Assembly (NCBI GenBank): GCA_015233135.1
Contig: JADFYH010000002.1
Span: forward strand, 43,102 to 107,101
Source of the DNA: Deltaproteobacteria bacterium
GTDB lineage: Bacteria; UBA10199; JADFYH01
Length of the DNA stretch: 64,000 nucleotides
Reading direction: 5' to 3'
Position 1 is the stretch's first letter, and every line of letters starts with the position of its first letter. Below the pieces are notes generated by a model. It was not told the origin of the DNA. It made no database searches and was given only the letters and a program-made list of their open reading frames with translations. Shown piece after piece: positions 1 through 61,769 of this stretch. A program made the position numbers and the translations under genes.

Positions 1-2493
1 GATCCGCGCGCAGGGCCTCCAGGTTCGCACGCTCCGCTGCAACTCGTGTTTCAGTGGGATAACAAGCCAAGGTTCTCAAATGCACTTCCACAGCGTCATT
101 GCTGGAAGGGGCCCTATGATTTACAATGTGCCTTTGGTGTGAGGTCCTCTCCAGGGAAGGCCAGCCTTGAGGATTCAGGCCCATTCGAAGCCAGAGGGTT
201 CGTACCCAATTGGCGGCAGAATGCCCGCCTGTGCTGCTTAAGGCCAAAGAAGGGAATACAGTGCTTTCCGTAATCACTTGAGCGGGATGGTGAAGACCGA
301 AATCATCCGGCTTTGGCATACGCGACCAGGCACCCAGAGGGATTGAGACTTCATGCAAAGGCATGCGACCCGTACGGGCCATTTGTCTTCTGGCAATAAT
401 AAAAGACCTTCCCCCCAGCGGTAAACTGATTACAGAAGAGTGGGGAGGATAAGGGAGCAATCCCAAAAAGCCCAGAGGTTCTGCATCAACCGACATGGTC
501 AATTCATCAAAAACATTTGCAGGATAACCTTCTGCTGCCATCTGCACCACTTGCGTCACCGCGCCATCGTACTCATGGGGTCTGCTTCCTACCGGCACCA
601 TGTAGGGCTCTAAGACTCGCGCAATAGGCTTTGGCAGAAGATTCATGAGTCCGTCTTTGCCCAAAATGGAACCCACCTTCCCACGCATCATGTGAACGAT
701 GTAAATCGCGAGAGAAAGAAAATCCCACCAGCTGCTGTGCTTCATGACATGGATGCTTCCTTCACGAGATAAAATATGCTCCACTTCACAAGGCCCCCGG
801 TAACTCACTCCCGTCGCCTCAAAGATCCTGGGTAATTTTGCCTGAGCCAGTCTGTAAAAAGTTCGATGGTTGGCCGCATTGGCCTCTGCGTTACTCATGC
901 GTGGAATAAGAGGAAGAAAGACCCTTAACAAAGGCCCTAAAGCCCTTGCGGTTTCCCAATAAGCTTTTCCCCTCTCTGCAGGACTTTTGCGCATGCCTTG
1001 TAGCTTGCTTAACTTATCTACATAAGGAGCAGAGAGAAGGCTGACCGCACCCAGAGGCGTCCCCTTGGGTAAAGATCTCTTCAGATCCCGACGAATCTCT
1101 TCTAAGGCCTTGAGAGAGGCCTCCAACAGACGATTATAATGGACACCATCGGCCTTGCCTTGGCCATAAGCAACTCCCCTGAAACGAACCAAAAGCGCCT
1201 CATAACGCGCAATCTTTGCCTCTATTATTTTTTGTTCTGCTTCAGGAATTAAACCGACATAACCCTCAATTTGCAAAAGTTGCAGTTGAAAATCGTCTGC
1301 AAAACTTTGTTGTTTGAAGGCATCGTGATCTGCATGAAAGGCATCATTCGCCTCCTGTGCCGCAGCAAAAGCTGCCTTGGTTTTTTCCAACAAGCCTCTT
1401 TTATCAGCGGCATAATCCGCCAGGGCAGCTGCTGCCTCCGGCAACTGAGCGGTGTCTGCGAGCCCAGAAAAAGAATCCCAAAAATCAAAACCAAGGCTTG
1501 CAATAATACTCTCCAAACGTTTTTCATACTCACCCTGGGCCGCAATATTCGTTTGATTTTTTCGGCGGGCCTTCTCTATCTCTTTGGCATAAACTTCCAA
1601 GGCAAGGATGTTTCGATGAAGTTCAGTACGAACCTCGTTTTCGTTTTTTCCTCTTTGACTTCTCACGGCAAAAGAATCGGTATTCTCTTTTAAAGAATTT
1701 AGACGCTCCGCCACCTGCTTTGCGGGCATGCCCAGCAAGGCCCTGCGCAAAAGATTCAACTCAATTTTCGCAATTTGCAAACGTCGGGCTAAAAGGGGAT
1801 TTTCCAAGAAGTTCTTCATGGCCTTTTGAAAAAGAGCCAACTCCGCTTTATAATCTACTCCATTAGGAGGGGTCGAACCATTGGGAGATTCAAGCTTAAC
1901 AAGACATCTTTCAAAGGCATCCAAGGGGTTTTCTTTTGCCGATTTTTCCTTATCTTTCGCCTTGGGGGCTTGATTTTTTAGAGCCTCTAACTGGGTATAA
2001 AAATGTTCCACCGCAGCCCTGAGCTGCTGGGTGGCGGGCTCATCCCTCAAACCGGGTTCCGATAAAAGCAGAAGATAATCCTGCTCACTTAAATCGTGTG
2101 GATTTTCAGCCATCGCCTGGCGTTGTTCTTCAGGAAAGAAATCCAGTCGTCGCAAAGCTTCGTCAATGGCTGCGCCATCCCCTAAAGCCTTCAATCCTCT
2201 TAAAACAGGGGAGGCCACCGCCCACTCACTAAAATCTCTTCCCAGTTCATTAGAACTTGTGTCCAAAAGATTATTTAACCTCTGCGCCTTGCCGTTCAGC
2301 AGCGCATAATCTACTGCAGGCATCTGGGTAAGCACGGCATTCAGTTTTTCGCTTTTCCCTTGTTGTTCTATGCGATGAACCATGTCCATAAAATGGGTCA
2401 TGGCGGCTTCGCGTATCGCTAGATCTGGGATTCTTGCCAGGACCTCTAAACGCCCCCTCAAAAAGGCCAGACTTTGAGCAGGAATTTTTGCAG
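1..2493 (-). CDS. Large hypothetical alpha-helical protein, 5'-partial in window (start ATG at 2491-2493; C-terminus beyond position 1). Not in the ORF track because there is no in-window stop.
   Basis: Manual translation of the minus strand from the ATG ATG at 2488-2493 (MMSAAKIPAQSLAFLRGRLEVLARIPDLAIREAAM...) runs open to position 1 (about 830 codons). It starts 16 bp downstream of the stop of the giant ORF on the same strand. Codon usage is coding-like. Confidence 0.55.
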
Positions 2494-2508
2494 CACTCAT
2501 CATTAAAT

Positions 2509-5500
2509 CTAATTGTCGAACAGTGGTGGGGGCTGGAACTGCAGGACTTTGTGCCGGTTCATACGGGGAATAACCGCAGGGATTTCATCGCCTGCATTCA
2601 CCCCCCTACCCGCACTTTGGAAAATTCCTGTTAACAATTTCTCTGAAGGATGAGCAGCTTTAAATCTTACACCCATTCTAGAAAGGACACCCTTGCCCCC
2701 CCTCTGAACTAAAAACACCGCAACACCCACAAGTGCCAGTGGCAGACCCGCTTCCTGCACCCCATCGGCTCCATGTAAAAAATGAGCCCCCGCTGCGGCC
2801 AAACTCGGAAAAGTTTCTGCGGCATAATGGAGTAATCTTTCTGAGGCCAGGCTAGAAGCTACACTCAGGGCAATCAGAAGAGCTTTGCCTTTGCTACCCG
2901 TAAGACTACGAACGACGGGCATCCCATCTCCACCCCTCTCCACTAATTCAGTAGGTTCACAGTCCTCAAGCTGTGTGCTATTCCTACTCCGCTCGGCTGC
3001 TGCCATCATCGTTACTCTTTCATCGGCTTCAACATACTCGCCATTGTGTGGATTAAATATCGTCCTTTTGCCTCGAAGAGCTTCTGGAGGAGGTTCAGCC
3101 ATCACATAATTTTTTTTAGGGTCACGTTCAAATTCAAACGAGGGGTCCAAGGGAGGAAGTTCAGGTAAAGCCTCAACTGTTGGAACCGCCAAGGGCAATT
3201 GCATTTCAAATGCCTCAGCTCTACGTCTTGCTGATGATAGTGGATTCAAGCTTATTCTATCGCTTGTAGCGACAGCCGGGGCGGGCATATCGGAAATTCT
3301 TTGGGGAACGCCAGCTCCTTGCTTACTTGAAAAACTAGGTCCAACATCAAAAGTGATATCTGCGGGTCCTACTTTCACCGAAAATTGGAAATGCCGTTTA
3401 AACTCGACACTTCCATCTGGATTTTGCACGCGGACCAGTTCAGCAGGATTAGCTCCTGCCAAAGTTTTGCCAGGTTCTATGACATTAAAATGATAGACTT
3501 TACCTTCAAGCCCTTGGACAAAAATAGTGCCCGACTCGCGCCAAATTTCAATTGCTGGCCTATAGCCGGATTTAGATTCGTAGGTGAGTTTTTGTCTTTC
3601 AATATCCAAATAAATTTTTCGATGAACCCCCTCACCCAAATGTTCAAAAGGATTTCCCAACGCTTGAGTAGTAGGCAACTCACCCAAGGCGGGGAAATCC
3701 ACGAAAGCGTGACATTCAATCTCTCCTCGTGCAATGCATCTCGCCATTCTCGCGGCATCCTCGTAGATCTTTGCAAGCGCGACTTGACCCGCTTCAAATT
3801 GTCGCATTCTTGCTTGATGAGCACGCAAACGAGGCCCTACAAGGGCTAGCAATCCTAACGCTAAAGCAGCAGGTAAACCATAGGTTAACAACTTCTCACC
3901 AAACGATGCAGAATGCAGCGCCACAAACTGCAAAGGATGAGCTTCGCCATCCCCTGCACGCAGCAAGGCAGAAGCCCCCAAAGCCAAAATGGCAGGCAAG
4001 GCCTTTAAGACTCCTCCCCGTTCTGAAGTGGCTGCTTGCGCTGCCTTTGCCGCCTCTTCTCTAATTCGATGACGAATCAAATGTTCGGCAAGTCCATCAA
4101 GCAGATCGGCATGAGGATAGGGATCTTTTTCACCCTCCACCGCAAATCGATAACCAGCGCCACTTGCATTGAGTTTCGCATAAACTTCTGCGCGCAATTG
4201 ACTGCAGGCAACCTCGAGTTCTGTTCCTTCTAGTTTTTCTAATTCGTGAAAAGTTTCAGGATTTTCAACTTTAACGGCAAGTTCCCTAAACAACGCAGTT
4301 AGGGCCTGTTCAGGTAAAGTTAAAGAGCGACTCAGTAGCCTCAAACAATGGTAGACCGATTGATAATGATTCCACCCCTCGACGATGGGGGGACTTGCTT
4401 CGATTTGATTAATCTCCGCCTTTGCAGCTGCAAACAAGCCTGGAAGCTCCTTTGGAGAAGCTTCGCGTAGGATAAAAACGCTAGAAATTCTCTCTGCACT
4501 CAAGGGCACAGCGGGGTCATAAGTTTCATCCACTCCCAGCCTCAAAGCCTCACGCGGGGCAAACAATTCAGTGATGCCATTGGGATTTTTTAAATTTCCA
4601 TCCGGATGGCGTGGCTCGGTACCTCGCACGTATACCTCGTTTCCAGGCACCAAATCATGCGCCAAAGCAAAGTGTTCGGTTTCGAATACCAGGGTATTGT
4701 GAGAGCCCCAGCGGTATTCATGAATGAGTTCACCCACATTCACCTTTTGCCCCACTTTAGGAAATACACGAGAGCTAGACACCAGGGCCGCGGAGGTGCA
4801 AACCATCGCGACACGGCCATGCCTGGGAGTTTTAATAGTGATCACTACTCGATGATTTTTACTTTGAAATTGAGTGCCTTCTCTGCCATCCAGATTCTCC
4901 ACCGCATTTTCCAAACGCAAGGCAGGATCCACCGTCTGTAAAACACCGGGGATCAGCTCCACACTTTCGATTTCTCCGGAAACAGGGGTTAACGTTTGAT
5001 GATAATCTTTAGGAGACAGATAAATTGCCATCGCGGTGAGCGACCTGCCTGCAAATTTGGCGGCCGTACTCTCCCCCAACCCTTCACGCAATTTTAAAAA
5101 GGCATCTCCATTTGGTTTTGCTTCTGTCACCGGCGCCTTACCGGCAAGGCGCACACCGGTATCCAACAAGTTTTCACCGCGCGCCACCCAATCTAAAACT
5201 CCATCGTGATGAGCCTGACCCAGATGAACCGGCAATCCGCCTTCGGGCAGCTTCAGCGCCCGCGTGAAGAAATCGTTAAAGGTACGAATGCCTTTCCAGT
5301 TAAAACGTTCGTCGTGCTCGATCTTAAATTTTTTCACCAAGATTGCACGCAAACTATGCAAAGCCTTCTCACCCCACATTTGAGACAATAAACCAGGAAA
5401 AGCATCTCGAACCTCGTCATAAATTCTACTTATTGGCACGGTAGAACAAAGCTGCTCCAAGGCGGCCGTGAGGGCAGGCGCATCCAATTTTTCGTTATAA

Positions 5501-8500
5501 AAATGATTGGCAGCCAGAAAGAGGCGGGATTTGGGATCTTTGACATCCCCCAAACGAACAAACTCTCTCGGCCAGGCATCCTGGGCATCGTATTGTACCG
5601 CTTCATAAAATTGCCCGGTGTGTTCGTCTCCAAGCATATGCTCTTCAGTTGCCCGACTGAGGGAATCTTGCTGCCAGGTGGAATCATCTACTTTTAATCG
5701 ACTCTCTCCATTTACAGTATGCCTATATCCGTCTACGCTTTGGAGTTCCGGATGAGTAGGCATGTAGTCTTGAGGGCCCTTCACTCCGGGATGGTTCCAT
5801 TCGCTCAACAAGGCCGTGTTCTCCAAACGACGCTCTGTCCACAGATGCCGATAAACTCCAACCGCCAGACCTGCCCCCAAGGTGAGGAGATGAGGCACTT
5901 GAGAAACAAGAGACTCGCCTAACACCAAAGTTTTGGTGGCAATAGAAGACACGCCTAAAAGCAAAGCGGCATAACCAAACTTGCGGTAAGAACCTTTTGT
6001 GAAAGGATGAATGAAGCCACTGAGTAAAGAAGGGACTAACCCTATAATTCCTCCCAAACCCGCTGAGGTAGAGAGCATGGTCAATCCCGTATGAATTCCC
6101 GCTTCAATTTTATTCCACTTGGATTGGCTCTCTCTTTGTTCAGGCGTCCAATCGGCATTTCCTTTTCTGCGATCCAGGCGACGACGATTCACCAGATGTG
6201 CGATCCCCCCCACCAAAGCCAGAGTCACCAAGTGCCCTGGAGTGCTGGCCAGCAAAAAATGCCCCGCGTTTTGTAAAAAGTGGGTCAAGGCAGAAGTGGT
6301 CTCCGCTACAACGGGATGCAACTCTTGCGCCTGGGCCTCAGCGGGTTGAATCAAATGGGTAAATCCAAAAACTCCCACCACCGAGGCAACAGAAACCAAG
6401 GATTGTTTTAAAAATTGACCGGCTGACGCGCCCCTCTCCCTGACCCTCTCCCTCAAGGGGAGAGGGAAATTAGATTTTCCTTCCCCTTGAGGGGAAGGTG
6501 CCTGTAAGGCGGATGAGGTAAGGGCTTCTGAATTGGGATTCACGGCATCAGAATTGGAAATCGGATTGGCATCCAATTGCACACTCCCCTCCTCTGCCCC
6601 TGAGGTAGCTTCTCCCCGAGGAGAAGGGAAGACCGTCTCCACAAAATGCACGGCATCCCCATCGAAGGCCACACGCACTTCATCTCTTTGATGCCGCGCA
6701 GAAAGATCCCGAGCCTGCGTTGCACTTAATCTTTCTCTCAAGGCCATGCGCAGCAAATCGGCTTTGGAAGGCACTCTGACGCTTTCGCGATGAGCGACAC
6801 CTAGACGGGCAGGATGAGAAGCTTGCGCGTGTAAAACATCGAGTGCATTTAAAAGTTCCACAAAACCTTCCAAACGACGAATTTGGGTGGCACGTAATAC
6901 AAAGCTTGCAGACCCACTCACCAAAGATTTTGCAAAACGATTAAAAATCTCCCGTGCTTCCGTGCCAGAAAAATTTTGAAGATAGGCATGCATTTGCGCA
7001 AAATATTGCGCAGGAATTCCACCATTCATGCTGCGTGATAAAAATCGGCTCCGTTCTTCTTCACTCAAATGAAAATTATGACTTTGCTCAATCAAATTTT
7101 CCAGCGAATGCCCACGGGCCTGATATTCCAGCGCTTCAGCGATAATACGTGTGCGTTCATCCAGAGAAAAAGTAGTCAGAGGAAGATTCCCCATTTCTCG
7201 CGAATACACTTCATCAATAAGGGCCACCCGCTCGCGTAAAATTTGACCGACTTCTTCAGGGCTTAAGGCCGCATGAATATCCAGCTGCAAATTCTGACGA
7301 TAGGCCGGCACATTTCCCTGTTCTATCCCATGCAGCACCGCCAAAATGCGTCCACCGTCCGCAGAAAGAGGGTCTAATCTTAATCGCTCAAAAAGATTTC
7401 CATATCGAGGCAGAGTCTCTTTCATGTGGTGAATGGCTTCCCAGCGGTGTTTTAAAGGTCCCAAGACGGGAAGATGCCCAGTGATGCGACCGGCAAGGTC
7501 CATCTGCCCCGCTTCAATTGCTTTTCCGGCGAGCCAGGTTCCCCAGGAGGCGGTTTCTTCGTGTTCTCGCAAACCTACGGCTTCTTGCGCTTTGTCGGCG
7601 GTTAAAAATCCAAGCAGAGTAGAACCCACAAAGTTGGCACTGCCCAAACCCGCTTCGGCGGAATGCACCAATCCCCGCTGAGCCAGGGCAGAGAAGGCAG
7701 AGGAGTCGATCAAACGCACGGCACCTGATCTTAACGGTTTGATAATCCGTGAACCAAACAGCTCTCCATGCCCATGACAGGCCAAAAACATCACCAGGTT
7801 CGACAGATATTTTTTTGAAAGATGATAAGCCCCCAAATTCTCATGACGCCAATTTTGAAAGGCGAGTCGATGATGCGCCGGATCGTGCCTGCTTTGACGA
7901 TAGGCCTGGGCCGCACCGAGGGCGGTTTCCAGACCCACGAACACTGCGGCTTCGCCGGCCTTCATCGCCAGGGTACAAAGCAAACGCCCCCCTAAGCTGG
8001 CACCGATTCGGGCAGAGAAAAGCCCACCAAACATGAAAGGCAAAAGGAAAGAGGCATTCGACCAAACACTGGCCTCCCCATGAATGGGCAGCATCTCAGA
8101 GGCACTGGAAAGCACCCCATTCATTTGGGCACGGTGGCGCAAAAGGTCTTGAAGACCTGAAACCTGATCGGCTGGGGCCCCATTTTCTTGCAACAAAGAA
8201 CAAAGCGACAAAGAAACCTGCGCGGCGTTAAAACGAGAATGAGAGAGCTCTAAGGTGAAGGCCTCCAGATTGGCATTCACCTGCACGGCAGAGAGACCAG
8301 CGACCGAATTGGCATTGATGAAATTCAAGACGAGTTGTCCTATCGAAGTTGCAGAGGCCCTATCTTCGTTGCCTAGCAGGTGGTTGACGGAGGCTTCGAT
8401 GTTAAAGGCAGGCGCCTCGGCGGAATGCTCAAAAAATTCTCTGAGGTGAGTAAATCGAGTTTCCGTCGCAGAGCCCAGTAAAGTTTGCATCGCCTGAGCT

Positions 8501-10428
8501 ACCGTCAAACGATGTTCTGCCTCGGCTGAAGTGAGACGACTAATTTCCTGGATGAATAAATCTTTTTCCGCATTCAAGGCTTCCGCTGTATCTGCCCCTT
8601 CGGAAGCAAGGATCCCGACTTGATGATTGAGTGCAACATCGAGCACACGCAGCAGAGTGGCCGATCTCAGGCTGGCACGCTGGCTATTGACCTGGGTTTG
8701 CAGTTCGTGAGCCAGTTGATTTTCGGGATGCTGCAGCACCATGGCCTCTAGTCGGGACGAAATTTGATCCAGCCGATCTGCCGTGAGCTCATGGGTTTCC
8801 ATCCGAAGCACAGGAAGCACTTGAGCGAGCTCTGTGAGACCGCGTTGCTCTTCGGCACCAAGCCTTGCCCTGCCACGATTTCCGGCCGCGGCACAAAGTG
8901 CTCCGAGACTATCCAAGGCCTGTAAGGCTTCGCTATTCATTCCAACGCGGGTATAAATTTGGGCCAGTTCACGATAAAGCCGGGCATTCGCCAAATTGGG
9001 AGTTTTGTTCGCCAGCTGTTCCGAGACCCTTGCACCCAATTCCCGAACGGCGTCTTGAAGTCCAAAAGAAGCGAGGATCTGCAGGGCCTGTGAGGCATTC
9101 TGAAAACTTTGAGTGGACCAGCAACGACTGCTGTTCGCATTGGGAGCCAGTTGATGAGCGATCAGGGTTTGTCTGAAGAAAGTGTCGGCTGAGATGCTAT
9201 CGAGCTGACTGAGACGTTCTTGCCTTTGAGCCTCCGTCCCCGAAGAAAGATAAGCCTCAAAATCGTTCACCGCTTGCTCCGACAAACGGCCGTAGGCCTG
9301 GCGCGAAAGCCCGGAAAATTCTCTACGAAAAAGATCTCGACCCACAGACGTTTGGGCATAATTTCGAATGAGAGTTCTTAAAATTTCTTGTCCCTGTGCA
9401 GAGAGTGAAGCCCGTGAAAGCGATAAGGTTCGAAGCGCTTCCACACTGGCACTGTGACCAGAATGTTGGATGGTGTGTAAGGCAATGGCCGCAACCCTTT
9501 GGCGTTGTTGGGTCAGCCGTTCCGTCACTTGCGCGCGACGTTCGGCCAGTTGAGTAGGGTTAAGGTGATTCCGTGCCCAGTTTCCAATCGACAAAACCGT
9601 GTGAGCCGTGGCGGTGGCCATCTCATGGGCTAAATCACTGATACTTTTTTCATGATTTGGAGTTTGAGTTTCGCTGAGGTTGCGAGCCGTCAAAAAATCG
9701 ATGTCGGCCAAATAATTATTTTCCAGGCTCTCCCGCAGGGTTTCATTGTGAGCAACAAATTGATCGACCTGTAAAAAAGCGAGAGCAGTTTCGGCGGAAA
9801 CCGAAAAAAGAGAAGCCGCAGAATAAAGCTCCGCGCGCAAATGCAGCAGCTGGCCTATCACCTGCGCTTGCAGTTCTTGGGGCGCAGTCGCCGCATGAGC
9901 CAGAAATTGGGTGGCTGCCATCAGCTCCTGAGCCCGTTCGGTCACATCGTGAGAGGGATGCGACAGAACTTGAGTGATCCGCTCAAAACCACTTTGCAAA
10001 ATGCCTTGGGCATAAGAGGTGCCTTCAAGCGCGGCAGCCAATTGGCGTCTAAGCTGCAGCTGTTGTGGCACAGCCAGGCTTCGACTCTCTTCCGAAAAAC
10101 CTTGAAGGATTTCCGTAATTTTTGTTTCATCTCCCAATTCAACCAAACTGGGGAGAAGCATCAAAAGGGCTTCCTGCCTATCTCTGCCCTGAAGATTTTG
10201 GTGAATGAAATGGAGGCGGTCCCGAGTAAACTCTCTCAAGTTTTCCTGTTCGCCCGAGGAAGCGAATCTTCTGGCCACAATAGCGGCCGGTACTGTTGTT
10301 GCCGGCAACAAGGGAACCACACTTAAATTTCGTGGGGGGGAACCAGGCTCTCCTCCAGAAGAAGTCGCATTGACAGAACTTTCCGGGAGTGAAAAAGGAG
10401 AAACAGCAGGAAGAATTCGAATAGCCAT
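2509..10428 (-). CDS. Giant (2639 aa) multi-domain membrane protein with an embedded phosphatidylserine decarboxylase-like domain (encoded at about 4650-5320).
   Basis: Single uninterrupted 7.9-kb ORF. Central hydrophobic multi-TM stretch. PSD hallmark motifs occur in canonical order and spacing: FNDFFTR, YLSPKDYHQ, and the G-S of YRWGSHNTLVFE at the position of the LGST self-cleavage site. Intervening similarity to E. coli Psd (IPGVLQTVD vs VPGDLFSVN). Confidence 0.8.
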   Translation of the reverse strand: MAIRILPAVSPFSLPESSVNATSSGGEPGSPPRNLSVVPLLPATTVPAAIVARRFASSGEQENLREFTRDRLHFIHQNLQGRDRQEALLMLLPSLVELGDETKITEILQGFSEESRSLAVPQQLQLRRQLAAALEGTSYAQGILQSGFERITQVLSHPSHDVTERAQELMAATQFLAHAATAPQELQAQVIGQLLHLRAELYSAASLFSVSAETALAFLQVDQFVAHNETLRESLENNYLADIDFLTARNLSETQTPNHEKSISDLAHEMATATAHTVLSIGNWARNHLNPTQLAERRAQVTERLTQQRQRVAAIALHTIQHSGHSASVEALRTLSLSRASLSAQGQEILRTLIRNYAQTSVGRDLFRREFSGLSRQAYGRLSEQAVNDFEAYLSSGTEAQRQERLSQLDSISADTFFRQTLIAHQLAPNANSSRCWSTQSFQNASQALQILASFGLQDAVRELGARVSEQLANKTPNLANARLYRELAQIYTRVGMNSEALQALDSLGALCAAAGNRGRARLGAEEQRGLTELAQVLPVLRMETHELTADRLDQISSRLEAMVLQHPENQLAHELQTQVNSQRASLRSATLLRVLDVALNHQVGILASEGADTAEALNAEKDLFIQEISRLTSAEAEHRLTVAQAMQTLLGSATETRFTHLREFFEHSAEAPAFNIEASVNHLLGNEDRASATSIGQLVLNFINANSVAGLSAVQVNANLEAFTLELSHSRFNAAQVSLSLCSLLQENGAPADQVSGLQDLLRHRAQMNGVLSSASEMLPIHGEASVWSNASFLLPFMFGGLFSARIGASLGGRLLCTLAMKAGEAAVFVGLETALGAAQAYRQSRHDPAHHRLAFQNWRHENLGAYHLSKKYLSNLVMFLACHGHGELFGSRIIKPLRSGAVRLIDSSAFSALAQRGLVHSAEAGLGSANFVGSTLLGFLTADKAQEAVGLREHEETASWGTWLAGKAIEAGQMDLAGRITGHLPVLGPLKHRWEAIHHMKETLPRYGNLFERLRLDPLSADGGRILAVLHGIEQGNVPAYRQNLQLDIHAALSPEEVGQILRERVALIDEVYSREMGNLPLTTFSLDERTRIIAEALEYQARGHSLENLIEQSHNFHLSEEERSRFLSRSMNGGIPAQYFAQMHAYLQNFSGTEAREIFNRFAKSLVSGSASFVLRATQIRRLEGFVELLNALDVLHAQASHPARLGVAHRESVRVPSKADLLRMALRERLSATQARDLSARHQRDEVRVAFDGDAVHFVETVFPSPRGEATSGAEEGSVQLDANPISNSDAVNPNSEALTSSALQAPSPQGEGKSNFPLPLRERVRERGASAGQFLKQSLVSVASVVGVFGFTHLIQPAEAQAQELHPVVAETTSALTHFLQNAGHFLLASTPGHLVTLALVGGIAHLVNRRRLDRRKGNADWTPEQRESQSKWNKIEAGIHTGLTMLSTSAGLGGIIGLVPSLLSGFIHPFTKGSYRKFGYAALLLGVSSIATKTLVLGESLVSQVPHLLTLGAGLAVGVYRHLWTERRLENTALLSEWNHPGVKGPQDYMPTHPELQSVDGYRHTVNGESRLKVDDSTWQQDSLSRATEEHMLGDEHTGQFYEAVQYDAQDAWPREFVRLGDVKDPKSRLFLAANHFYNEKLDAPALTAALEQLCSTVPISRIYDEVRDAFPGLLSQMWGEKALHSLRAILVKKFKIEHDERFNWKGIRTFNDFFTRALKLPEGGLPVHLGQAHHDGVLDWVARGENLLDTGVRLAGKAPVTEAKPNGDAFLKLREGLGESTAAKFAGRSLTAMAIYLSPKDYHQTLTPVSGEIESVELIPGVLQTVDPALRLENAVENLDGREGTQFQSKNHRVVITIKTPRHGRVAMVCTSAALVSSSRVFPKVGQKVNVGELIHEYRWGSHNTLVFETEHFALAHDLVPGNEVYVRGTEPRHPDGNLKNPNGITELFAPREALRLGVDETYDPAVPLSAERISSVFILREASPKELPGLFAAAKAEINQIEASPPIVEGWNHYQSVYHCLRLLSRSLTLPEQALTALFRELAVKVENPETFHELEKLEGTELEVACSQLRAEVYAKLNASGAGYRFAVEGEKDPYPHADLLDGLAEHLIRHRIREEAAKAAQAATSERGGVLKALPAILALGASALLRAGDGEAHPLQFVALHSASFGEKLLTYGLPAALALGLLALVGPRLRAHQARMRQFEAGQVALAKIYEDAARMARCIARGEIECHAFVDFPALGELPTTQALGNPFEHLGEGVHRKIYLDIERQKLTYESKSGYRPAIEIWRESGTIFVQGLEGKVYHFNVIEPGKTLAGANPAELVRVQNPDGSVEFKRHFQFSVKVGPADITFDVGPSFSSKQGAGVPQRISDMPAPAVATSDRISLNPLSSARRRAEAFEMQLPLAVPTVEALPELPPLDPSFEFERDPKKNYVMAEPPPEALRGKRTIFNPHNGEYVEADERVTMMAAAERSRNSTQLEDCEPTELVERGGDGMPVVRSLTGSKGKALLIALSVASSLASERLLHYAAETFPSLAAAGAHFLHGADGVQEAGLPLALVGVAVFLVQRGGKGVLSRMGVRFKAAHPSEKLLTGIFQSAGRGVNAGDEIPAVIPRMNRHKVLQFQPPPLFDN
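6431..6500. repeat. REP-like GC-rich palindromic element (ccctctccc...gggagaggg family) inserted in frame within the giant ORF.
   Basis: cccctctccctgaccctctccctcaaggggagaggg followed by ttccttccccttgaggggaagg. Same family as copies at 15511, 16597, 33283, 35166 and 41954. Encodes PLPLRERVRERG in the protein. Confidence 0.6.
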
Positions 10429-16853: not shown

Positions 16854-18770
16854 TCAAATATTCTTTTTAATATAATCCGCAATCCGCAGCGAAAAAGCCA
16901 TGATGGTCATTTGAGGATTTACTCCCAGAGAAGTGGGAAAGATGCTGCCATCGCTAATGAACAAATTGTCCATCTCGTGAACTTTTCCAAAAGAATTGAC
17001 GACCGAATCTTCCGCCTCTGTCCCCATGCGGCAAGTGCCCAAGGGATGAAAGGCCAGCACCTCCATATCCTTTTTTGTCACTTCCAATTTTTCAAAAATT
17101 TCCAGGTCCGCTCTGCTTTTCAAGACAGGCATGGGATGGAAGGGCGTGTAAACTTCTTTTGCGCCCGCTTCAAAAAAAAGCCTGCACAAGAGGCGAGTAC
17201 CCTGAATGAATTTTTTCACGTCGCTTTTTATCAGGTTATACAAAACCATCGGATAATCTTTGGGGCCCAAATAAACACTGCCTCGCGTGTCATCGCTAAT
17301 CATGAAACCAAAACAGGCCAGATGATCGAATTGCTCCATCACCGTTTTATGCTCAAGCCCCATCAACAAGATGGAAGGCCCTCCGATGGGAGGAGTGAAA
17401 ATTCCTTCAAACATGATGCCTTGGTCATTGTAGTCTTCACAATAGTAGCTTTGTGGTACTCCTTCCCAACCCCGCACTTCCTCTTCAAATAAAGCGAAGG
17501 CCTTGCCCGCAGGATGCAGCGTTAAATTCTTACCCACCTCGGCCAAATTCAACTTTGATTTTTTGAGCAGTACAGGAGAAAAAATACTGCCGGCAGCAAG
17601 CACAAACACCTTGGCCTTCACTTTGACCATGGCCCCTTTTTCAGCCGTCAGAGGATCTACAAATTGTGCCCGCACTTCCCGCACCTTTCCTTTCTCATGA
17701 ACAATTTCTTCCACTCGACATTGAGCCAACAGGCGAGCCCCTTGTTGCAGGGCCTGAGGAATGAAGTTGAGTTGCACACTTTGCTTGGCATCCGTGGGAC
17801 AACCTAAAGTACAAACACCACTTCCCTCGCAGTTAATCACATTTCGAAGCAGAGGCTTTCCCTGCATGCCCATTTTTTGAAAACCGCGCTGTATGATTCT
17901 GGCGCTATTCCCTAAAAGATGTTCGGGCACGGGGGTCACATGCAGGATAGACTCAATTTTTTCAAAATAAGGCCGCAAACCCTCGGATGAAATATCTTTC
18001 AGGTCATATTGGGAATTCCATTTTTGGATCACTTTATCCGGTAGGCGAAAACAGGTCCCGGAGTTGATGGTCGTGGTGCCCCCCACGCTACGTCCAAAAG
18101 GTAAAAGGACAGGAGGAAGACCCAAGGCCGCAAAGAGACCCGACTCCCTCCACATCTGACTGATGCGCTTTCCAATAGGCTCTTTAAAATCATTCAGATC
18201 ATAACGCCCACCTTCTTCCAGGATCACCACTTTCAAACCCTGGGCACTCAGTTCGGCAGCTAGAGGAGCTGCCCCTGCGCCTGAGCCAATCACGCACACC
18301 TCGCAATCGAGGGATAAATCTTTATCCGAATGAAGAAGCACATTCTCGGAATGAAGTGCGGGAGAAGCGGGAATCCGCGGCTTTTTAAGATAAAAACCCA
18401 GGGCCTCTTCTACCTTTTTTTGGCTGTAATATTGAGAGATAATTTTGGCTTCCAGCAGTCTGAAAAGGATCTTTTTGGGATAAAAATGAGAATAATAAAA
18501 AGATTGGACAACTTTTTCTTGCTGAAGAGGCTGAAGTTTTAAAAAAGGTTTTAAAAATCGAAGCAGCCCCCCCCACTCCAGCCATTTTAATCCAAGCCTG
18601 AAGGACTGTTGCATAGTGGCTTGGCAACACTGAAGAGATCTCTCCAAAGAATCGACGAGTTGTAAATCTTCACAGCAAAAGGGAAGTTTCTCTGTCTTGG
18701 GAATCAGCAGATCCACCAAAGCCTGAAGTATTTTTCTCTCCTTTGACTTGAATTGAAAGAGTTTACTCAT
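16854..18770 (-). CDS. GMC-family FAD-dependent oxidoreductase (choline dehydrogenase-like) with an N-terminal extension of about 130 aa.
   Basis: FAD-binding fingerprint CVIGSGAGAAPLAAELSAQGLKVVILEEGG. C-terminal GMC substrate-binding region. 638 aa. Confidence 0.75.
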   Translation of the reverse strand: MSKLFQFKSKERKILQALVDLLIPKTEKLPFCCEDLQLVDSLERSLQCCQATMQQSFRLGLKWLEWGGLLRFLKPFLKLQPLQQEKVVQSFYYSHFYPKKILFRLLEAKIISQYYSQKKVEEALGFYLKKPRIPASPALHSENVLLHSDKDLSLDCEVCVIGSGAGAAPLAAELSAQGLKVVILEEGGRYDLNDFKEPIGKRISQMWRESGLFAALGLPPVLLPFGRSVGGTTTINSGTCFRLPDKVIQKWNSQYDLKDISSEGLRPYFEKIESILHVTPVPEHLLGNSARIIQRGFQKMGMQGKPLLRNVINCEGSGVCTLGCPTDAKQSVQLNFIPQALQQGARLLAQCRVEEIVHEKGKVREVRAQFVDPLTAEKGAMVKVKAKVFVLAAGSIFSPVLLKKSKLNLAEVGKNLTLHPAGKAFALFEEEVRGWEGVPQSYYCEDYNDQGIMFEGIFTPPIGGPSILLMGLEHKTVMEQFDHLACFGFMISDDTRGSVYLGPKDYPMVLYNLIKSDVKKFIQGTRLLCRLFFEAGAKEVYTPFHPMPVLKSRADLEIFEKLEVTKKDMEVLAFHPLGTCRMGTEAEDSVVNSFGKVHEMDNLFISDGSIFPTSLGVNPQMTIMAFSLRIADYIKKNI

Positions 18771-19125: not shown

Positions 19126-20403
19126 GTGATGAATATCATCAATTTCAATCAGATCTTGATGGGAAGAGCTTATACAGCCACCTTTCCAAACCTCTGCACA
19201 AATTCAATTTCAAATGAGCTGAGTCCAAATTATGCTCAGATCCTTTCTAGAAACTTTGCCAGAAGCTTTACCAAACGCCTTGAAAATCTTTTACAAAGTG
19301 GACAAGCACAGCCTTCCTCTGCTGCCACACAAAACCAAGTGACTCAAGGAGTTCAAGGTATTCAAGGAGAACAAGGCTTTGTCGCCCAGGTCAACAACGA
19401 GCTGCAGCAGCAAATTTATACCCCAAATGTGGAAGAGCAAAAAAAGTTGAATGACATCAATGCCGACCGGGCCAAAGACGGCAAGCCTCCCATCAATTTT
19501 CAGCAAGTCACCCGTGAAATTGAAAACATCATGAATGATCCCAACCTGGATGAAGGGAAGAAAAAGGATCTCGTTGGAAAAATAAAGGATCGTTTGGGCC
19601 TTGGGAAAGGCGATATGAAGTTTTTATTTACCAAGCGCTTGGCAAAACTTCATGAACAAGCAGCTGATAAATTAAATACCCGTTTAGAAAGTTTGGAAAA
19701 AAATGCAAAAGAGATGGAAAGACTCTACGGCAAGAATAGTCCTCAAGCCTTGCAAGCCAATCAGGCCCTGGAAACCTCCAAAAGTGTTTTAGAACCCCAA
19801 AAACAGCAATGGGAGGCCAAGGCAAACTCTTACAGTAAAATGTTCCCTAGTTTTTGGAGTAAACTGGGAGGGGCATTTAAAAAAGTGGTCTCTGCTGTCA
19901 CCAAAGTGGTCAATGCAGTCGCGCCCATTTTAAAGATGATCCCCGGCATTGGAACGATTGCTTCCCTAGGTTTGGCGGCCATCAACGGGCTCAACAGTAT
20001 CGTCCATGGAGATTGGAAAGGTTTTCTGAAAAATGTGGCCTCAAATCTCGCAAGCGCTGTTCCTGCCTTGGGATCTGCAGTTCAGATGGGCATGAATGCC
20101 TTCAACACCGTAAAATCCTTTGCAAAAGGGAATATCATGGGGGGCCTCGGCGGGCTCATGAATTTCACTGGGGCACTCCCTGAAAAAGTGGGGGACATTC
20201 TCAACAAAGGCTGGTCTGCCTTTGGAAGCATTTACTCGGCGGCCAAAGGAAATTTTATGCCCCTCTTCAATACGGCCCTCAACTTTGCTCCTCAAATTCC
20301 TGGTGTTCAAAAGCTGCAAGAGACTTGGAATAATCTCCAGCAAAAAATACCTGTCCCGCTTAACCAAGGAATACAATGGCTTTCGAGTTGCTTTCCCTTC
20401 TAA
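19126..20403 (+). CDS. Hypothetical secreted/translocator-like protein: Q-rich coiled-coil N-terminal half and a C-terminal Gly/Ala-rich bilobed hydrophobic domain.
   Basis: Good SD (aaaaagggggaagtgATG). No homology recognised. Hydrophobic hairpin VTKVVNAVAPILKMIPGIGTIASLGLAAINGL. Confidence 0.65.
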   Translation: MMNIINFNQILMGRAYTATFPNLCTNSISNELSPNYAQILSRNFARSFTKRLENLLQSGQAQPSSAATQNQVTQGVQGIQGEQGFVAQVNNELQQQIYTPNVEEQKKLNDINADRAKDGKPPINFQQVTREIENIMNDPNLDEGKKKDLVGKIKDRLGLGKGDMKFLFTKRLAKLHEQAADKLNTRLESLEKNAKEMERLYGKNSPQALQANQALETSKSVLEPQKQQWEAKANSYSKMFPSFWSKLGGAFKKVVSAVTKVVNAVAPILKMIPGIGTIASLGLAAINGLNSIVHGDWKGFLKNVASNLASAVPALGSAVQMGMNAFNTVKSFAKGNIMGGLGGLMNFTGALPEKVGDILNKGWSAFGSIYSAAKGNFMPLFNTALNFAPQIPGVQKLQETWNNLQQKIPVPLNQGIQWLSSCFPF

Positions 20404-20445
20404 AAAATTTCACTCGGTGAGTTATAACCGATGTGGAAGGCGCAG

Positions 20446-20490
20446 TGAGAGCCTTGTCCTGATTAGGGATGAGGCTCTCCTGTTTTTGGC
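20446..20490 (+). terminator. Probable rho-independent terminator downstream of the 425-aa gene.
   Basis: Hairpin gagagcc...ggctctc followed by ctgtttttgg. Confidence 0.35.
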
Positions 20491-20681
20491 GTTTCATTTT
20501 CAAACCCCAAAAACACTCAAGCGTCCGAAATTCGAACTGGAAAAAAACGACTTAAAGAACATCAAAATATAACCCACTAAAAAGACAAAGTTTTTTTTCA
20601 AAAAAAACACAGGACGAGTTGGCATCTTCTTGGCATTTACAAGAAAGCGTAAACATCAACAAATTTAAAAAGGAGCCTAAA

Positions 20682-22457
20682 ATGATTTCATTAGCCAACC
20701 GAGACGGAAGCCAAAACCTCTACAACGATTTAAGTTCAGGCGAGGCCATTCAAGAATTGAAAGACAAACACGACTTTTCAACCAAGATGCTGCATCCTCT
20801 GATTAGTGGAGAAGAAATGATGCAGACTATCTTTAAGGGGATTAGCGATTCCGACAACCATGCCGCTAGCAGCGAATACATCGACCTTAAAAAGTTTACG
20901 ACAGACAACAACTACAGAATGACCCCCGAAGCTAGAAACGAATTCAACATTTATGAACGTTATGTACGGAATGCTCAATCTCAGGGCAGAACAGGACTCA
21001 ATCCCTTTGAAATGAAAGGCATGTACATGGAGATGAAAAATGCAAATGTGAATTTCACAACTCCAGCTTCTTTTGATAGCCCTGCTTTCAACCAGATTGC
21101 AGGAAGCACACTCCCTCAATACAACGTCATCGGCATGAATACTCCCATTGTTCCCAGTAATAATGGTTATGTGCCTTCTTTTCCTGGAACAAATTTTGTG
21201 GGACAAACTCCCAGCTGGGCTCCCACGGCAGGAATCGCTGCCAATGAAACGGCCAAGGTATGGGGTGACCCTCATTTTGTAGATCCCGATGGTGGACACT
21301 TTGATGTTCAGGGTGAAGCCGGAAAAACCTACAACATGCTGGACGATAACAATTTGAATTTTAATGCCCGTTTTGATGATGCCGGCAAGGGCACAACGGT
21401 GATTGGACAAACAGGGATTACCTTGCAAGGCTGGCGTGGCACTTCCCAGATTCAATTTTCAAAAGAAGGAACAGCTTCGATCAATGGGCAAATCCTCCAA
21501 CCCGGTGCTATGGAAACTCTGGCAGATGGAGGTCATGCCCTTCTCTCTGAAGATGGAAAAACACTCACCCTCAAAACAGGTGAAGGCTATACCATCACCC
21601 AACGTTTAGTGGATGGACGCATTGATGCTGACGTTAAAAGTCCTGCTGAAGGCATAGACACAGATGGCCGTATGCCTGGAGGTTTACTAGGTCAAACTTT
21701 TGATGCGGATAATGTGGCCCGTAATTCCAGTGGGCATCAAGGAGAAGGAGCTATCGCGGGAACAGTCGGTGACTACGAAGTTCCAGGAGGGGTATTTGGA
21801 TTTGCAAATTCAAACAACATTGCCAGCTATCCTAATCTGGTCAATCCTTACCCCCCCACCTATTCGAATTTTCCTGTGGCAAGCGCTCAAGCGCCTATGA
21901 GCATACCCACTTATACCCCTGCCTTCACAGCCTCTTCTTTGGCCTCTGTGATTCCCCAAGTTATGCCTCAAGCCATCCCTCAAAGCGATCAAAGTCTGGA
22001 TTTTATGCTTTCTCAAACTCAACGCGGTGAACAACAGGCAAGCCTCAACGACAGCAATAGTCAGACAGATAAAATCTTGCAGCAGCTTCTGGTCGCACTG
22101 AAAACTGGAAACATCGATGTAGCAATGCTGCTTTTCTCCGACTTAGAAAGCAAACAATCCACTCAAATGACCGGCATGCTCACTCAACAATTAGTGCAAC
22201 TCCAACAATCACGTAAACAAATGATGATGCAAATGAATCAGAATCAAAACCAGACAGCAGGTCAAAATGGAGTAAATCCACAATCTAACACCGCAGCACT
22301 TCAAGCAAATGTTCAAGAAGTAAATGACAGTATTCAAATGTTGACCAGCTTTATTAAAGATATCAGCGAACAGAAAAATCGTGTGGCAGAATTTGCAAAC
22401 AACTATCTTTCCACTGAACATCAGACCAGCATGGACATCGTTCGGGGAATGAGATAA
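20682..22457 (+). CDS. Protein with a VWD-like domain (GDPH motif) and a Q/N-rich low-complexity C-terminus. Start taken at MISLANRDG, which has a good SD.
   Basis: WGDPHFVDPDGGHFDVQGEAGKTYNML matches the VWD N-terminal signature GDPHYxTFDGxxYxFxGxCxYxL. The C-terminal GGLLGQTFDADNV matches the VWD GLCGNFNGxxxDDF signature. SD aaaaaggagcctaaaATG. Confidence 0.7.
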   Translation: MISLANRDGSQNLYNDLSSGEAIQELKDKHDFSTKMLHPLISGEEMMQTIFKGISDSDNHAASSEYIDLKKFTTDNNYRMTPEARNEFNIYERYVRNAQSQGRTGLNPFEMKGMYMEMKNANVNFTTPASFDSPAFNQIAGSTLPQYNVIGMNTPIVPSNNGYVPSFPGTNFVGQTPSWAPTAGIAANETAKVWGDPHFVDPDGGHFDVQGEAGKTYNMLDDNNLNFNARFDDAGKGTTVIGQTGITLQGWRGTSQIQFSKEGTASINGQILQPGAMETLADGGHALLSEDGKTLTLKTGEGYTITQRLVDGRIDADVKSPAEGIDTDGRMPGGLLGQTFDADNVARNSSGHQGEGAIAGTVGDYEVPGGVFGFANSNNIASYPNLVNPYPPTYSNFPVASAQAPMSIPTYTPAFTASSLASVIPQVMPQAIPQSDQSLDFMLSQTQRGEQQASLNDSNSQTDKILQQLLVALKTGNIDVAMLLFSDLESKQSTQMTGMLTQQLVQLQQSRKQMMMQMNQNQNQTAGQNGVNPQSNTAALQANVQEVNDSIQMLTSFIKDISEQKNRVAEFANNYLSTEHQTSMDIVRGMR

Positions 22458-22480
22458 CATAAGAGGAGATATAAAAAAAG

Positions 22481-22519
22481 AAGGCCTTCCGCTCTCGAAC
22501 TCGGAAGGCCTTCTTTTTT
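22481..22519 (+). terminator. Rho-independent terminator.
   Basis: gaaggccttccgctctcgaactcggaaggccttc stem-loop followed by an 8-nt T-run. Confidence 0.7.
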
Positions 22520-22597
22520 TTGGAGAAGAAAACTAGTTTTGACAAGCATCACTTCTTTTTGCTACAAACTCAAACCGCATTCAACCTAGGAGAAAAT

Positions 22598-22810
22598 ATG
22601 GCTCGCGTAACCGTAGAAGACTGTTTAGAAAATGTTGATAACCGTTTTGGTTTAGTTCACCTGACCGCCCGTCGCGTCAGACAAATTGTAAAAGGCTCCG
22701 AAGTTCTCGTTGACTGTGACAACAAAGATATCGTCACGGCCTTACGCGAAATAGCGGAAGGATATGTACGAGTAGACTCGGACACCCTTCCTCAAAACAT
22801 CGACGAATAG
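22598..22810 (+). CDS. rpoZ: DNA-directed RNA polymerase subunit omega.
   Basis: [30 protein letters not shown] is the canonical RpoZ N-terminus. SD ggagaaaatATG. Confidence 0.85.
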
Positions 22811-22812
22811 AC

Positions 22813-23028
22813 CTAGTCCGTAAGGGTGTTGGTATGGGAAGTCAGCCAATTTTCTAAATACTGCTGCTGAATCCTCCATTGCCCACCCACCTTAAAAGCA
22901 GGAAGATTTTTGCTTTTGATCAACCTATAGATGGTCATCTCATGCAAACTTAGCCTATTGGCCACTTCCTTAATGCTTAGGAACTCTTTCCGACTTTGGT
23001 CCACTACAAAATCCGCCATCTTATCCAT
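22813..23028 (-). CDS. Excisionase-family / AlpA-like helix-turn-helix DNA-binding protein.
   Basis: LSIKEVANRLSLHEMTIYRLIKSKNLPAFKVGGQWRI is the HTH_17 / excisionase-type motif. Small (about 72 aa). Confidence 0.55.
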   Translation of the reverse strand: MDKMADFVVDQSRKEFLSIKEVANRLSLHEMTIYRLIKSKNLPAFKVGGQWRIQQQYLENWLTSHTNTLTD

Positions 23029-23470
23029 AAAGAACCTCCCTTGTGTACCCTGTTTATGAAGCAAGAGATATACCAATTTTAGCCATTTTTGCGTTTTCTA
23101 CTAAAATCAATATATTTTAAATAGTTACACATCTTAATCGGACTGTACTTTCCAAACATTTTTTGAATAAAAGGCATTTTTTACCCACATTGCTGACATT
23201 TTTTTGACTCGAGCCCACTTCCCTGGACAAACAAGACTATTCTCTCCCGGCCCCTCTGAAGAGGGGTGATTATTTTTTACCTCCCCTCTTTTTGACAGGG
23301 AAGAAAATGCGAGAGCATTTTCGGGAGTTCACATTATTCAACGCATTCCATTTTTCCTACACTCGTTCGATTCCCATACGCTCCATTTTTTCACAAATTC
23401 AATAACCCCTCATTTTTCATCAACTCTTTCTTTTCAGCAAACAAGCACAGTTCCTGCTTTGTAACTAAGC

Positions 23471-24475
23471 ATGGAAACTCAACTCTCTTTTAAAGACCGT
23501 GCCAAGCAAGCCTTCTATTTTTATGCCGGGATAGGGCAAGGAGTTGTAGACACCGCCAAAGGCCTAGCCAAGCTCTCTCTGCTCCCCGCCACACAAGGCT
23601 TGGATGCCTTGGGAAAAGCGGCCGATTTTATTTCTCATCCTCAAGAAAAAGCAGAAGCCGCTTATCAGGAAGCAAAGCAGGGGTACAAGGATCTGCAAAG
23701 GCTTTGGAGTCAGCCCAAAGAAGAGATTTCAAAAGGGACAGAAAAACTGGGCAACGCTGTTCAGCACGAGTGGAACGAATTCACAAAGCCTTTTGAAAGT
23801 AGTGACCCCAATGTGAGGGCCAAGGCTTGGGGCGAGACAACTTTTAACGTTGCGTCCTTATTTTATGGTGCGGGGGAATTGAAAGGTGCAAGCGTTGCCA
23901 CAAAAGAACTTTCTGTCTTTAGCAAGGCAGAAATTGCGGAATCGAAAATTGTTTCTCAATTAGCAGAAACGGGCGCTGAGATCGCCTCACCTTCTTCAGC
24001 TGCAAGCAGCACCTTACAAGCTTCAGTTCAGTTGTATGAAAGAATTCCAGCGGGTTTTAACAACAGCAAAGAATTTGAAGAATTTGGAAATCTTTTTAGA
24101 GAAGGCCTCCAAAAAAGTGCTGACCCTGAAGCAATTGGAGTGTTAAGAGGGAGTTCGGTCACTGGGGTGAAACATAAAAATGGTTTACCCTTTGATACGG
24201 GAAAGAGGAGTGATTTGGATTTGACGGTGGTGAGTCCGAAGTTGCTCAAAAGGGCTGAGGAAATGGGAGTGAAATTGAGGGAGGGGAAAACTAGGACTGG
24301 GCCTTTGGATCCAGATTTTTTTAGACAAAAACAAATTCTAAAAAAATTAAACCTATTTGACAGCATTCAATCATTGCGAAGCTTTTCTAATAGAGATGTA
24401 AGCCTTATGATATACGACAGTGAAGCTTCCGTTGCAGGCAGAGGCGAGTATATAAAATTTGGAGATAAGAAATGA
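23471..24475 (+). CDS. Putative polymorphic-toxin-like protein: N-terminal pre-toxin (PT-TG-like) Gly-rich region plus a C-terminal nucleotidyltransferase-fold motif.
   Basis: N-terminus AGIGQGVVDTAKGLAKLSLLPATQGLDALGKAADF. C-terminus LRGSSVTGVKHKNGLPFDTGKRSDLDLTVV fits the GS...DxD minimal NTase signature. Overlaps the downstream small ORF by 4 nt (ATGA). Confidence 0.45.
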   Translation: METQLSFKDRAKQAFYFYAGIGQGVVDTAKGLAKLSLLPATQGLDALGKAADFISHPQEKAEAAYQEAKQGYKDLQRLWSQPKEEISKGTEKLGNAVQHEWNEFTKPFESSDPNVRAKAWGETTFNVASLFYGAGELKGASVATKELSVFSKAEIAESKIVSQLAETGAEIASPSSAASSTLQASVQLYERIPAGFNNSKEFEEFGNLFREGLQKSADPEAIGVLRGSSVTGVKHKNGLPFDTGKRSDLDLTVVSPKLLKRAEEMGVKLREGKTRTGPLDPDFFRQKQILKKLNLFDSIQSLRSFSNRDVSLMIYDSEASVAGRGEYIKFGDKK

Positions 24476-61732: not shown

Positions 61733-61769
61733 CCCTTCTATAAAATAAGTTTTCTAATACATTTTGTGA

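Follow-up and report, generated by a model that had tools for sequence, protein, structure and literature searches.

The 64,000-nt stretch of DNA analysed here (hereafter the window) covers positions 43,102 to 107,101 of the forward strand of contig JADFYH010000002.1, in assembly GCA_015233135.1 of an uncultured Deltaproteobacteria bacterium (UBA10199; JADFYH01). At its left end, up to position 10428, it carries two very large genes on the minus strand: a 'giant' gene of 2639 codons and, immediately downstream, a second gene, here termed the partner, which runs over the window edge at position 1. We consider it likely that window 2503..2 holds the 5′ third of a real gene of 2369 codons and that, with the giant, this gene makes up the two halves of an ancestral gene of ~5000 codons encoding a membrane-anchored, multi-enzyme protein for phospholipid synthesis. 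The features of the locus on which this reading is built are as follows; P0002 is a fused relative that is described below.

2509..10428, minus strand: giant gene, 2639 aa, upstream half of the putative split unit (listed open reading frame (ORF); 57% identity to P0002)
4630..5091, minus strand: phosphatidylserine (PS) decarboxylase domain, giant aa 1780-1933 (Pfam PF02666)
2509..2584, minus strand: zone in which both frames are open and the ancestral frame appears broken (net -1 nt), from stops, anchor spacing and similarity to P0002
2504..2508, minus strand: 5-nt spacer ATTTA between the giant's TAG (2511..2509) and the partner's ATG (sequence)
2..2503, minus strand: partner gene, N-terminal 834 codons, 35% of 2369 aa (open frame, coding statistics and 100% identity to residues 1-834 of its best relative, P0001)
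809..2503, minus strand: all-alpha-helical region, partner aa 1-565, with a putative scaffold role (AlphaFold2 model and homology to the distant family)
164..808, minus strand: divergent alpha/beta domain resembling the LPLAT/AGPAT enzymes (PlsC/GPAT fold), partner aa 566-780 (sub-threshold Pfam match, motifs, Foldseek, hhalign)
722..739, minus strand: HX4D catalytic-dyad motif, H589 SSWW D594 (regular expression and alignment)

The partner is a real gene with clear coding potential. From the ATG ATG at 2503..2498 (minus strand) its frame continues without a stop to window position 2, giving an open run of 834 codons with a chance expectation at this base composition of ~8e-20; the remaining five frames of 1..2503 contain 20-50 stops apiece. 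The ATG at 2503 is the first start codon after an in-frame stop at 2587..2585. With twelve confident genes of the window as the reference, codon usage gives log-odds of 0.25 for the partner frame and of -0.24 to -0.48 for the other five, alongside 0.24 for the giant gene and 0.15-0.42 for the housekeeping genes of the window, and the partner frame ranks first among the three minus-strand frames in 8 of 8 consecutive 300-nt bins. The encoded peptide starts MMSAAKIPAQSLAFLRGRLEVLARIPDLAIREAAMTHFMDMVHRIEQQGK (in a fuller read, MMSAAKIPAQSLAFLRGRLEVL) and matches the one quoted in a preliminary description of this DNA, which had read an open minus-strand frame of ~830 codons down to position 1 by eye: no in-frame stop had been misread along the 834 codons, and the codon usage carries the coding signal expected of a gene. 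That description had placed the ATG ATG at 2488-2493, which is 10 nt off; the minus-strand frame starting at 2493 is riddled with stops, and the correct start is 2503. The distance to the giant's stop, put there at 16 bp, is likewise corrected to a spacer of 5 nt. It had rightly explained the absence of the partner from the ORF track by a stop that lies outside the window, since the ORF listing omits frames that run over an edge. Neither tandem repeats nor Rfam families were found in 1..2800. A near-consensus sigma-70-like site (TTGAAA-17-TATAAT, 11/12) occurs on the plus strand at 1826..1854, antisense within the partner ORF; sigma-70-like sites in the partner region total no more than in shuffled sequence, so this one is probably due to chance.

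The remainder of the partner was recovered from its relatives, of which an exhaustive search with HMMER through 1.84 billion representative proteins returned 13. The best of these, P0001, is 2369 aa long and 100% identical to the partner over residues 1-834; it is GenBank MBF0491341.1, from a Deltaproteobacteria metagenome-assembled genome (MAG), and is encoded on a 126,781-bp contig. The partner gene is thus already annotated in GenBank, under the automatic name '1-acyl-sn-glycerol-3-phosphate acyltransferase', and from the length of P0001 its stop, which the preliminary description had proposed to look for beyond the edge, lies ~4.6 kb past window position 1. Two enzyme domains are found in the part of P0001 outside the window. 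Residues 1759-1864 match the Pfam acyltransferase family PF01553 (45 bits against a cut-off of 23), with the canonical motifs THDSGLE (HX4E, at 1780) and FPGATR, and residues 2099-2193 match the CDP-alcohol phosphatidyltransferase family PF01066 (41.8 bits against a cut-off of 22). The catalytic motif of the latter, tested as D-x2-D-G-x2-A-R-x8-G-x3-D-x3-D, is complete (DGIDGTVARKIGASSRTGEWADDFAD at residue 2138) and is kept in P0002.

Within the window, the N-terminal part of the partner is helical throughout. An AlphaFold2 model of the 834 residues, computed from a 14-sequence alignment (A1), has a mean pLDDT of 79.2 and a pTM of 0.83, and its helices span H9-H564. Residues ~8-780 are homologous to ten distant homologs, among which the helical region is conserved at low identity. 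The helical region (aa 1-565) has no Pfam match, and neither it nor the in-window protein as a whole was matched in sequence searches of the PDB; thiolase matches in it (Pfam/NCBIfam, E 0.004-0.07) were treated as noise.

The domain that follows, at residues 566-780, is identified as a divergent version of the GPAT/AGPAT (LPLAT) fold by three independent lines, of model and of sequence. In Pfam it scores below the gathering cut-off of PF01553 (14.5 against 23 bits, E=0.031), with aa 575-667 falling on profile positions 8-99. Foldseek against the PDB places PatA, squash GPAT, Thermotoga maritima PlsC and human GPAT1 at ranks 1-4, at E values of only 0.05-0.11; the match to T. maritima PlsC has a probability of 0.98 and a TM score to the target of 0.56. 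Finally, hhalign against the family's own canonical C-terminal acyltransferase domains gives E=5e-4 and pairs KHSSWWDF with THDSGLEF (motif I) and FDELTMS with FPGATRN (motif III). The histidine of the HX4D motif, H589, is invariant in 11 of the 11 homologs that cover it, and the aspartate is replaced, by glutamate, only in P0009. Motif III reads F-D-E-L-T-M in place of F-P-E-G-T-R, so that the Glu and Thr are kept and the Gly and Arg lost. The domain is therefore described here as LPLAT-like, its catalytic dyad probably being intact and its acceptor site altered, and is not classed as a bona fide PlsC. A set of motifs (HxSWxDF, KxGL, YDxxVT, (F)DELTM, GGRSF, PKPD and ANWxRTxW) is common to the family across 12 homologs.

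The giant gene supplies a further enzyme domain. Its PF02666 match is strong (69.6 bits against a cut-off of 22, E=3.7e-19), and the decarboxylase motifs SPKDYHQ (DYH, at 1808) and RWGSHNT (WGS, a proenzyme cleavage-type G-S, at 1908) are both kept in P0002. A GAGGA Shine-Dalgarno-like sequence lies 8 nt upstream of its ATG. The best-conserved stretch of the giant by far is aa 760-1000 (window 7429..8151, minus strand), which is 79% identical to the relative, compared with 57% overall, has a mean column identity with it of 89%, and contains hydrophobic runs such as SFLLPFMFGGLFSARIGASLGGRLLCTLAMKAGEAAVFVGLE; it belongs to no Pfam family and found no relatives in genome or metagenome scans. Taken together, the domain inventory of the pair comprises a PS decarboxylase (in the giant), a divergent LPLAT-like domain (in the window) and a PlsC-type acyltransferase and a CDP-alcohol phosphatidyltransferase (beyond the edge), joined by long helical regions. 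The preliminary description had spoken of two very large helical proteins: the size and the helical regions stand, and the proteins are not merely helical, given their phospholipid-enzyme domains. A simple hydropathy scan finds four hydrophobic, transmembrane-like segments per half, or about eight across the pair, and the unit would thus be membrane-anchored. The idea of a secreted effector, suggested by size and helical content, was dropped in view of the polytopic CDP-alcohol transferase, the several hydrophobic segments and a gene context of housekeeping, free-living type.

That the two genes belong together is indicated by P0002, the second-best relative of the partner. This only close relative is a single ORF of 5394 aa on contig JAHZTO010005007.1 (GCA_020049755.1), which translates cleanly; its residues 74-2477 align with the giant, at 57% identity over the first 1985 columns (residues 74-2017), and its residues 3001-5369 align with the partner at 58.5% identity, the alignment starting exactly at 'MM'. 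The loci are also syntenic: ubiD is divergently oriented upstream of the unit both in the window and in GCA_020049755.1, where a gene for a FolC-like ligase and manC lie downstream of the fused gene. The fusion is strong evidence, at the level of sequence, that the two window genes work together.

The distant homologs (n=10) suggest which of the two states is the older. They are proteins of 1550-2166 aa with 23-30% identity, encoded by single genes at a syntenic locus upstream of the FolC-like gene, and in 10 of 10 the equivalent of the partner's N-terminus falls 190-520 residues inside a contiguous protein. A hidden Markov model (HMM) made solely from the 50 residues that, in these proteins, lie strictly before the Met-equivalent position matches the P0002 linker with 11.4 bits (1/5000 shuffles), aligning LEPVQAPRSVEE with the consensus eePapPvRSvrE. 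Because the distant-family HMM recognises the P0002 linker, continuity across the junction would be ancestral and the two-gene state in the window a derived split. That the window itself preserves the family linker is not supported by the HMM scores, which bear this out for the fused relative P0002 only. The family motif P-x-R-S-x-x-E reads APTTVRQ in the window.

At the junction, signs of this history can be made out. The partner frame is -1 relative to that of the giant, and the two open frames overlap by 76 nt. In the partner frame, similarity to P0002 reaches back beyond the ATG by at least 12 codons (VPAPTTVRQLDLMM versus VQAPRSVEELELMM; 25/2000 shuffles), and the distance between flanking anchors (E/K-I-P-A upstream, ATGATG downstream) is, by hand count, 89 nt in the window and 90 nt in P0002. 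A net change of -1 nt, ~30-70 nt before the partner's ATG, may thus have broken a single frame; the zone contains two homopolymer runs, C4 at 2568..2565 and C5 at 2532..2528. The partner's ATG is preceded by no Shine-Dalgarno sequence. No terminator-like or promoter-like site was found in a scan of 2400-2800, in keeping with the earlier statement that no terminator separates the genes, and the RNA of the junction folds no better than shuffled sequences (z = 0.30). A co-transcribed, coupled pair is accordingly supported by the shared strand, the 5-nt spacer, the fused ortholog and the lack of a terminator, promoter or structure at the junction, and to that extent the probable operon of the preliminary description holds; what gives way is the notion of two independent operon genes, the pair being better described as a split gene. 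Both halves would be transcribed together from a promoter upstream of 10428. If the break is biological, the downstream half would be translated by reinitiation at the ATG ATG 5 nt after the giant's TAG (termination-reinitiation coupling), giving an N-terminus of MMSAAK; a continuous chain would instead include the trans-frame peptide IPAVIPPYEPAQ.

Four other explanations of the two-ORF state were weighed. The one that survives best, although we regard it as rather unlikely, is an assembly or sequencing artefact, in which the locus is really one gene of ~5011 codons and a base has been under-called in a homopolymer such as the C4 run. Indeed, the addition of one C to this run fuses the ORFs and opens the frame from 10428 to the window edge (3476 codons, ~5011 aa in all), and a single chain of 5011 aa would then be translated. 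The one-nucleotide difference in anchor spacing and the persistence of partner-frame similarity to P0002 upstream of the ATG are also what an under-call would leave, both halves are otherwise intact (2639 + 2369 codons), and the source is a MAG. The decay of the linker motif to APTTVRQ speaks against an artefact: the region is at chance against the family HMM even when repaired, which fits a loss of constraint. Seen in a single lineage, motif decay mildly favours a real and not very recent split with reinitiation over an assembly error.

An origin as two ancestrally separate operon genes, with the ORF of GCA_020049755.1 a secondary fusion or a product of gene calling or assembly, is improbable. 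It would account for the ATG ATG at the start of the partner, and for the 'MM' kept at the matching internal position of the fused P0002. Moreover, apart from a short tail motif, the giant shares nothing detectable with the extensions that the distant homologs carry at their N-termini: its C-terminal part gave no significant profile match to them (hhalign E 0.085; hmmsearch 0.007, on unrelated segments), and short motifs were seen only by eye. However, the wider family does not keep the 'MM', the 5394-aa ORF reads cleanly from the deposited contig, and separate origins sit badly with a partner N-terminus that is internal to a contiguous protein in every distant homolog and with a P0002 linker, upstream of the MM, that matches those same homologs.

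It is very improbable that the locus is a decaying pseudogene, a megagene inactivated by the frameshift with its downstream ORF left unexpressed. A frame interrupted in comparison with the ancestral one and a partner ATG without a Shine-Dalgarno sequence are what such decay would allow, but the 2369 further codons are free of stops with normal codon bias in every 300-nt bin, the catalytic motifs are intact in all enzyme domains, and a start codon 5 nt after a stop is the classical layout for coupled translation. Programmed -1 ribosomal frameshifting, which would yield products of 2639 and ~5011 aa and to which the -1 relation and the 76-nt overlap of the frames lend themselves, is scarcely credible, as 2584..2509 contains no X XXY YYZ slippery heptamer, the downstream RNA forms no stable structure, no Rfam frameshift element is present, and the relative P0002 needs no frameshift.

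Returning to the split gene as the preferred reading, the domains of the pair suggest a pathway. The LPLAT domains would acylate their substrates to phosphatidic acid, with the in-window domain carrying out the first (GPAT-like) step or, because its motif III has changed from EGTR to ELTM, acting on a different acceptor; the CDP-alcohol transferase would convert CDP-diacylglycerol (CDP-DAG) and serine to PS, which the decarboxylase of the giant would convert to phosphatidylethanolamine (PE). Successive steps of the Kennedy route would thereby be held on one scaffold. Serine is proposed as the acceptor because a decarboxylase is linked to the transferase; NCBIfam cannot assign the head group.

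Several points weigh against this interpretation. For the CDP-alcohol transferase, the best NCBIfam matches are to archaetidylinositol-phosphate synthase (2e-9) and pssA (3e-6), all far below the cut-offs: TIGR00473 pssA reaches 27 bits where its cut-off is 107, with similar scores for other head-group synthases. The in-window domain, being sub-threshold in Pfam and without a canonical motif III, may be a pseudo-enzyme. The direction of change at the junction rests on one fused relative and short motifs, the distant-family HMM gives the pre-ATG sequence of the window no more than a chance score in any frame or after the one-C repair, and the giant half is present in only two genomes. Lastly, no CdsA-type domain was detected across the pair, and the CDP-DAG synthase step depends on a weak lead that resembles Tam41.

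This lead is a lineage-specific insert at residues ~975-1300 of P0001 (L001 14143..15402, past window position 1), with 75% identity between the two genomes. Within it are nucleotidyltransferase (NTase)-like motifs, GYGSFPLF...KPDYILVVRD...FTFFNSDILV...FKFSLVSE, that resemble Tam41. At the sequence level no match to Tam41/Mmp37 (PF09139) was obtained for the insert in Pfam at E values up to 10, nor any to the PDB by phmmer or profile. A two-sequence AlphaFold model of it is poor (pLDDT 50.8); with this low-confidence model, Foldseek against the PDB returned Tam41 at ranks 1, 4, 5 and 7 and winged-helix proteins among the rest, with marginal scores (E 0.04-0.19, probability up to 0.69, TM 0.2-0.28). 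Tam41 itself has an NTase plus winged-helix layout (PMC7018664), with which these hits agree. The insert is thus a candidate Tam41-like CDP-DAG synthase domain, a weak lead from modelling that we consider more apt to fail than to hold; it would supply the missing CDP-DAG step. The most far-reaching proposal, that the split pair encodes the whole route from glycerol 3-phosphate or lysophosphatidic acid to PE on one scaffold, with GPAT-like and AGPAT-like LPLATs, a Tam41-like (non-CdsA) CDP-DAG synthase, a PS synthase and a PS decarboxylase, is doubtful.

The classical enzymes of PE synthesis (PlsB/PlsC, CdsA, PssA and Psd) are separate small proteins encoded at dispersed loci. The pair has enzyme families in common with the bacterial Kennedy pathway, namely an acyltransferase, a CDP-alcohol phosphatidyltransferase (type-II PssA family) and a pyruvoyl-type PS decarboxylase with its DYH and G-S motifs, but here they are domains of one gene, or of two adjacent half-genes, linked by thousands of helical residues. 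Compared with the PlsC/AGPAT-GPAT enzymes of PF01553 (PlsC, 5KYM; squash GPAT, 1K30; Mycobacterium smegmatis PatA, 7OJT; human GPAT1, 8E4Y), the in-window domain is alike in predicted fold and in the position of HX4D, and the full-length partner has a second, canonical PF01553 domain above threshold. Whereas those enzymes measure ~230-830 aa, however, the domain of the partner is embedded in 2369 aa (ancestrally ~5000) behind a 565-aa helical region, and it has ELTM for the EGTR of motif III together with the family-specific GGRSF, PKPD and ANWxRTxW. Tam41/TAMM41, the mitochondrial CDP-DAG synthase (PDB 6IG2/6IG4), resembles the insert of P0001 in the Foldseek ranking and is unlike it in the lack of any sequence-level match.

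The distant proteins of ~1550-2170 aa annotated as 'lysophospholipid acyltransferase family' in uncultured bacteria (P0003-P0014, e.g. MFO1464766.1 and MFO1518467.1) share with the partner the in-window module, the helical region, the canonical acyltransferase and a position upstream of a gene for a FolC-like ligase. Absent from them are the giant N-terminal half and the insert at 850-1440, and those examined by a Pfam scan (P0003-P0005) or through precomputed Pfam assignments (P0007 and P0009) have the Acyltransferase domain only, with neither a PS decarboxylase nor a CDP-alcohol transferase. One distant relative genome (L007 8001..18711) has two tandem paralogs of this large acyltransferase family, P0007 (1803 aa) and, directly after it, a 1703-aa ORF that matches P0010 in size; P0007 and P0010 resemble each other closely at their N-termini.

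A megaprotein of ~5000 aa that combines several phospholipid-synthesis domains is a rare and uncharacterised architecture, seen in only two MAGs across billions of searched proteins. Scans of 185,579 species-representative genomes and a metagenome collection with the best-conserved block of the giant found no further relatives of that half, and those with the partner and with a conserved partner block gave no match either; the family alignment A1 was too divergent for search patterns. A word-indexed protein search likewise returned nothing when queried with the partner, with the giant or with the best-conserved block of the latter, which does not amount to absence, since the method misses P0001 and P0002 in the same collection; its negatives are unreliable for long, low-complexity helical queries. 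Literature searches yielded no description of such a fusion architecture.

The rest of the window is ordinary bacterial chromosome, with ubiD, a copper ATPase gene, pheST, thrS, infC, rpsA, rodA and guaAB, genes of the futalosine pathway for menaquinone, tRNA-Pro and tRNA-Val; no canonical phospholipid genes were found elsewhere in it. Four other regions are recorded here. At 16854..18770 (minus strand) a 638-aa protein has an N-terminal gluconate 2-dehydrogenase subunit-3 domain fused to a GMC oxidoreductase. Three consecutive ORFs of 425, 612 and 334 aa, none with a Pfam or NCBIfam family, occupy 19126..24475 (plus strand). On the minus strand at 36451..38221, a gene for an AbiEii-type nucleotidyltransferase toxin (PF08843) overlaps at its upstream end with a 272-aa ORF without a family, and the two look like a type IV toxin-antitoxin or abortive-infection pair. 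Finally, 59604..63944 (minus strand) may be a defence island: it encodes a 724-aa protein in which a type I restriction-modification methyltransferase region (HsdM/MAD2-like) is combined with one of specificity-subunit type (HsdS/MAD5-like), and next come a gene for a Ser/Thr protein kinase and a 402-aa ORF without a family.

An ORF truncated by the edge of a window is ordinary in itself; what is unusual here is the architecture, in which domains of PE synthesis are strung on ~5000 mostly helical residues. The in-window module would define an uncharacterised acyltransferase-like domain family, marked by HxSWxDF, ELTM, GGRSF, PKPD and ANWxRTxW. If the domains are active, the locus would offer a clear case of a gene fission or fusion caught between two relatives, and a natural experiment on how substrates are channelled when membrane lipids are made. 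The Tam41-like insert, if its identity were borne out, could be the first bacterial use of a Tam41-type CDP-DAG synthase. Were the whole-route proposal true, the pair would constitute a membrane-lipid assembly line without a described counterpart, which might stand in for the dispersed housekeeping enzymes or else serve to build a specialised membrane in this lineage of uncultured deltaproteobacteria.

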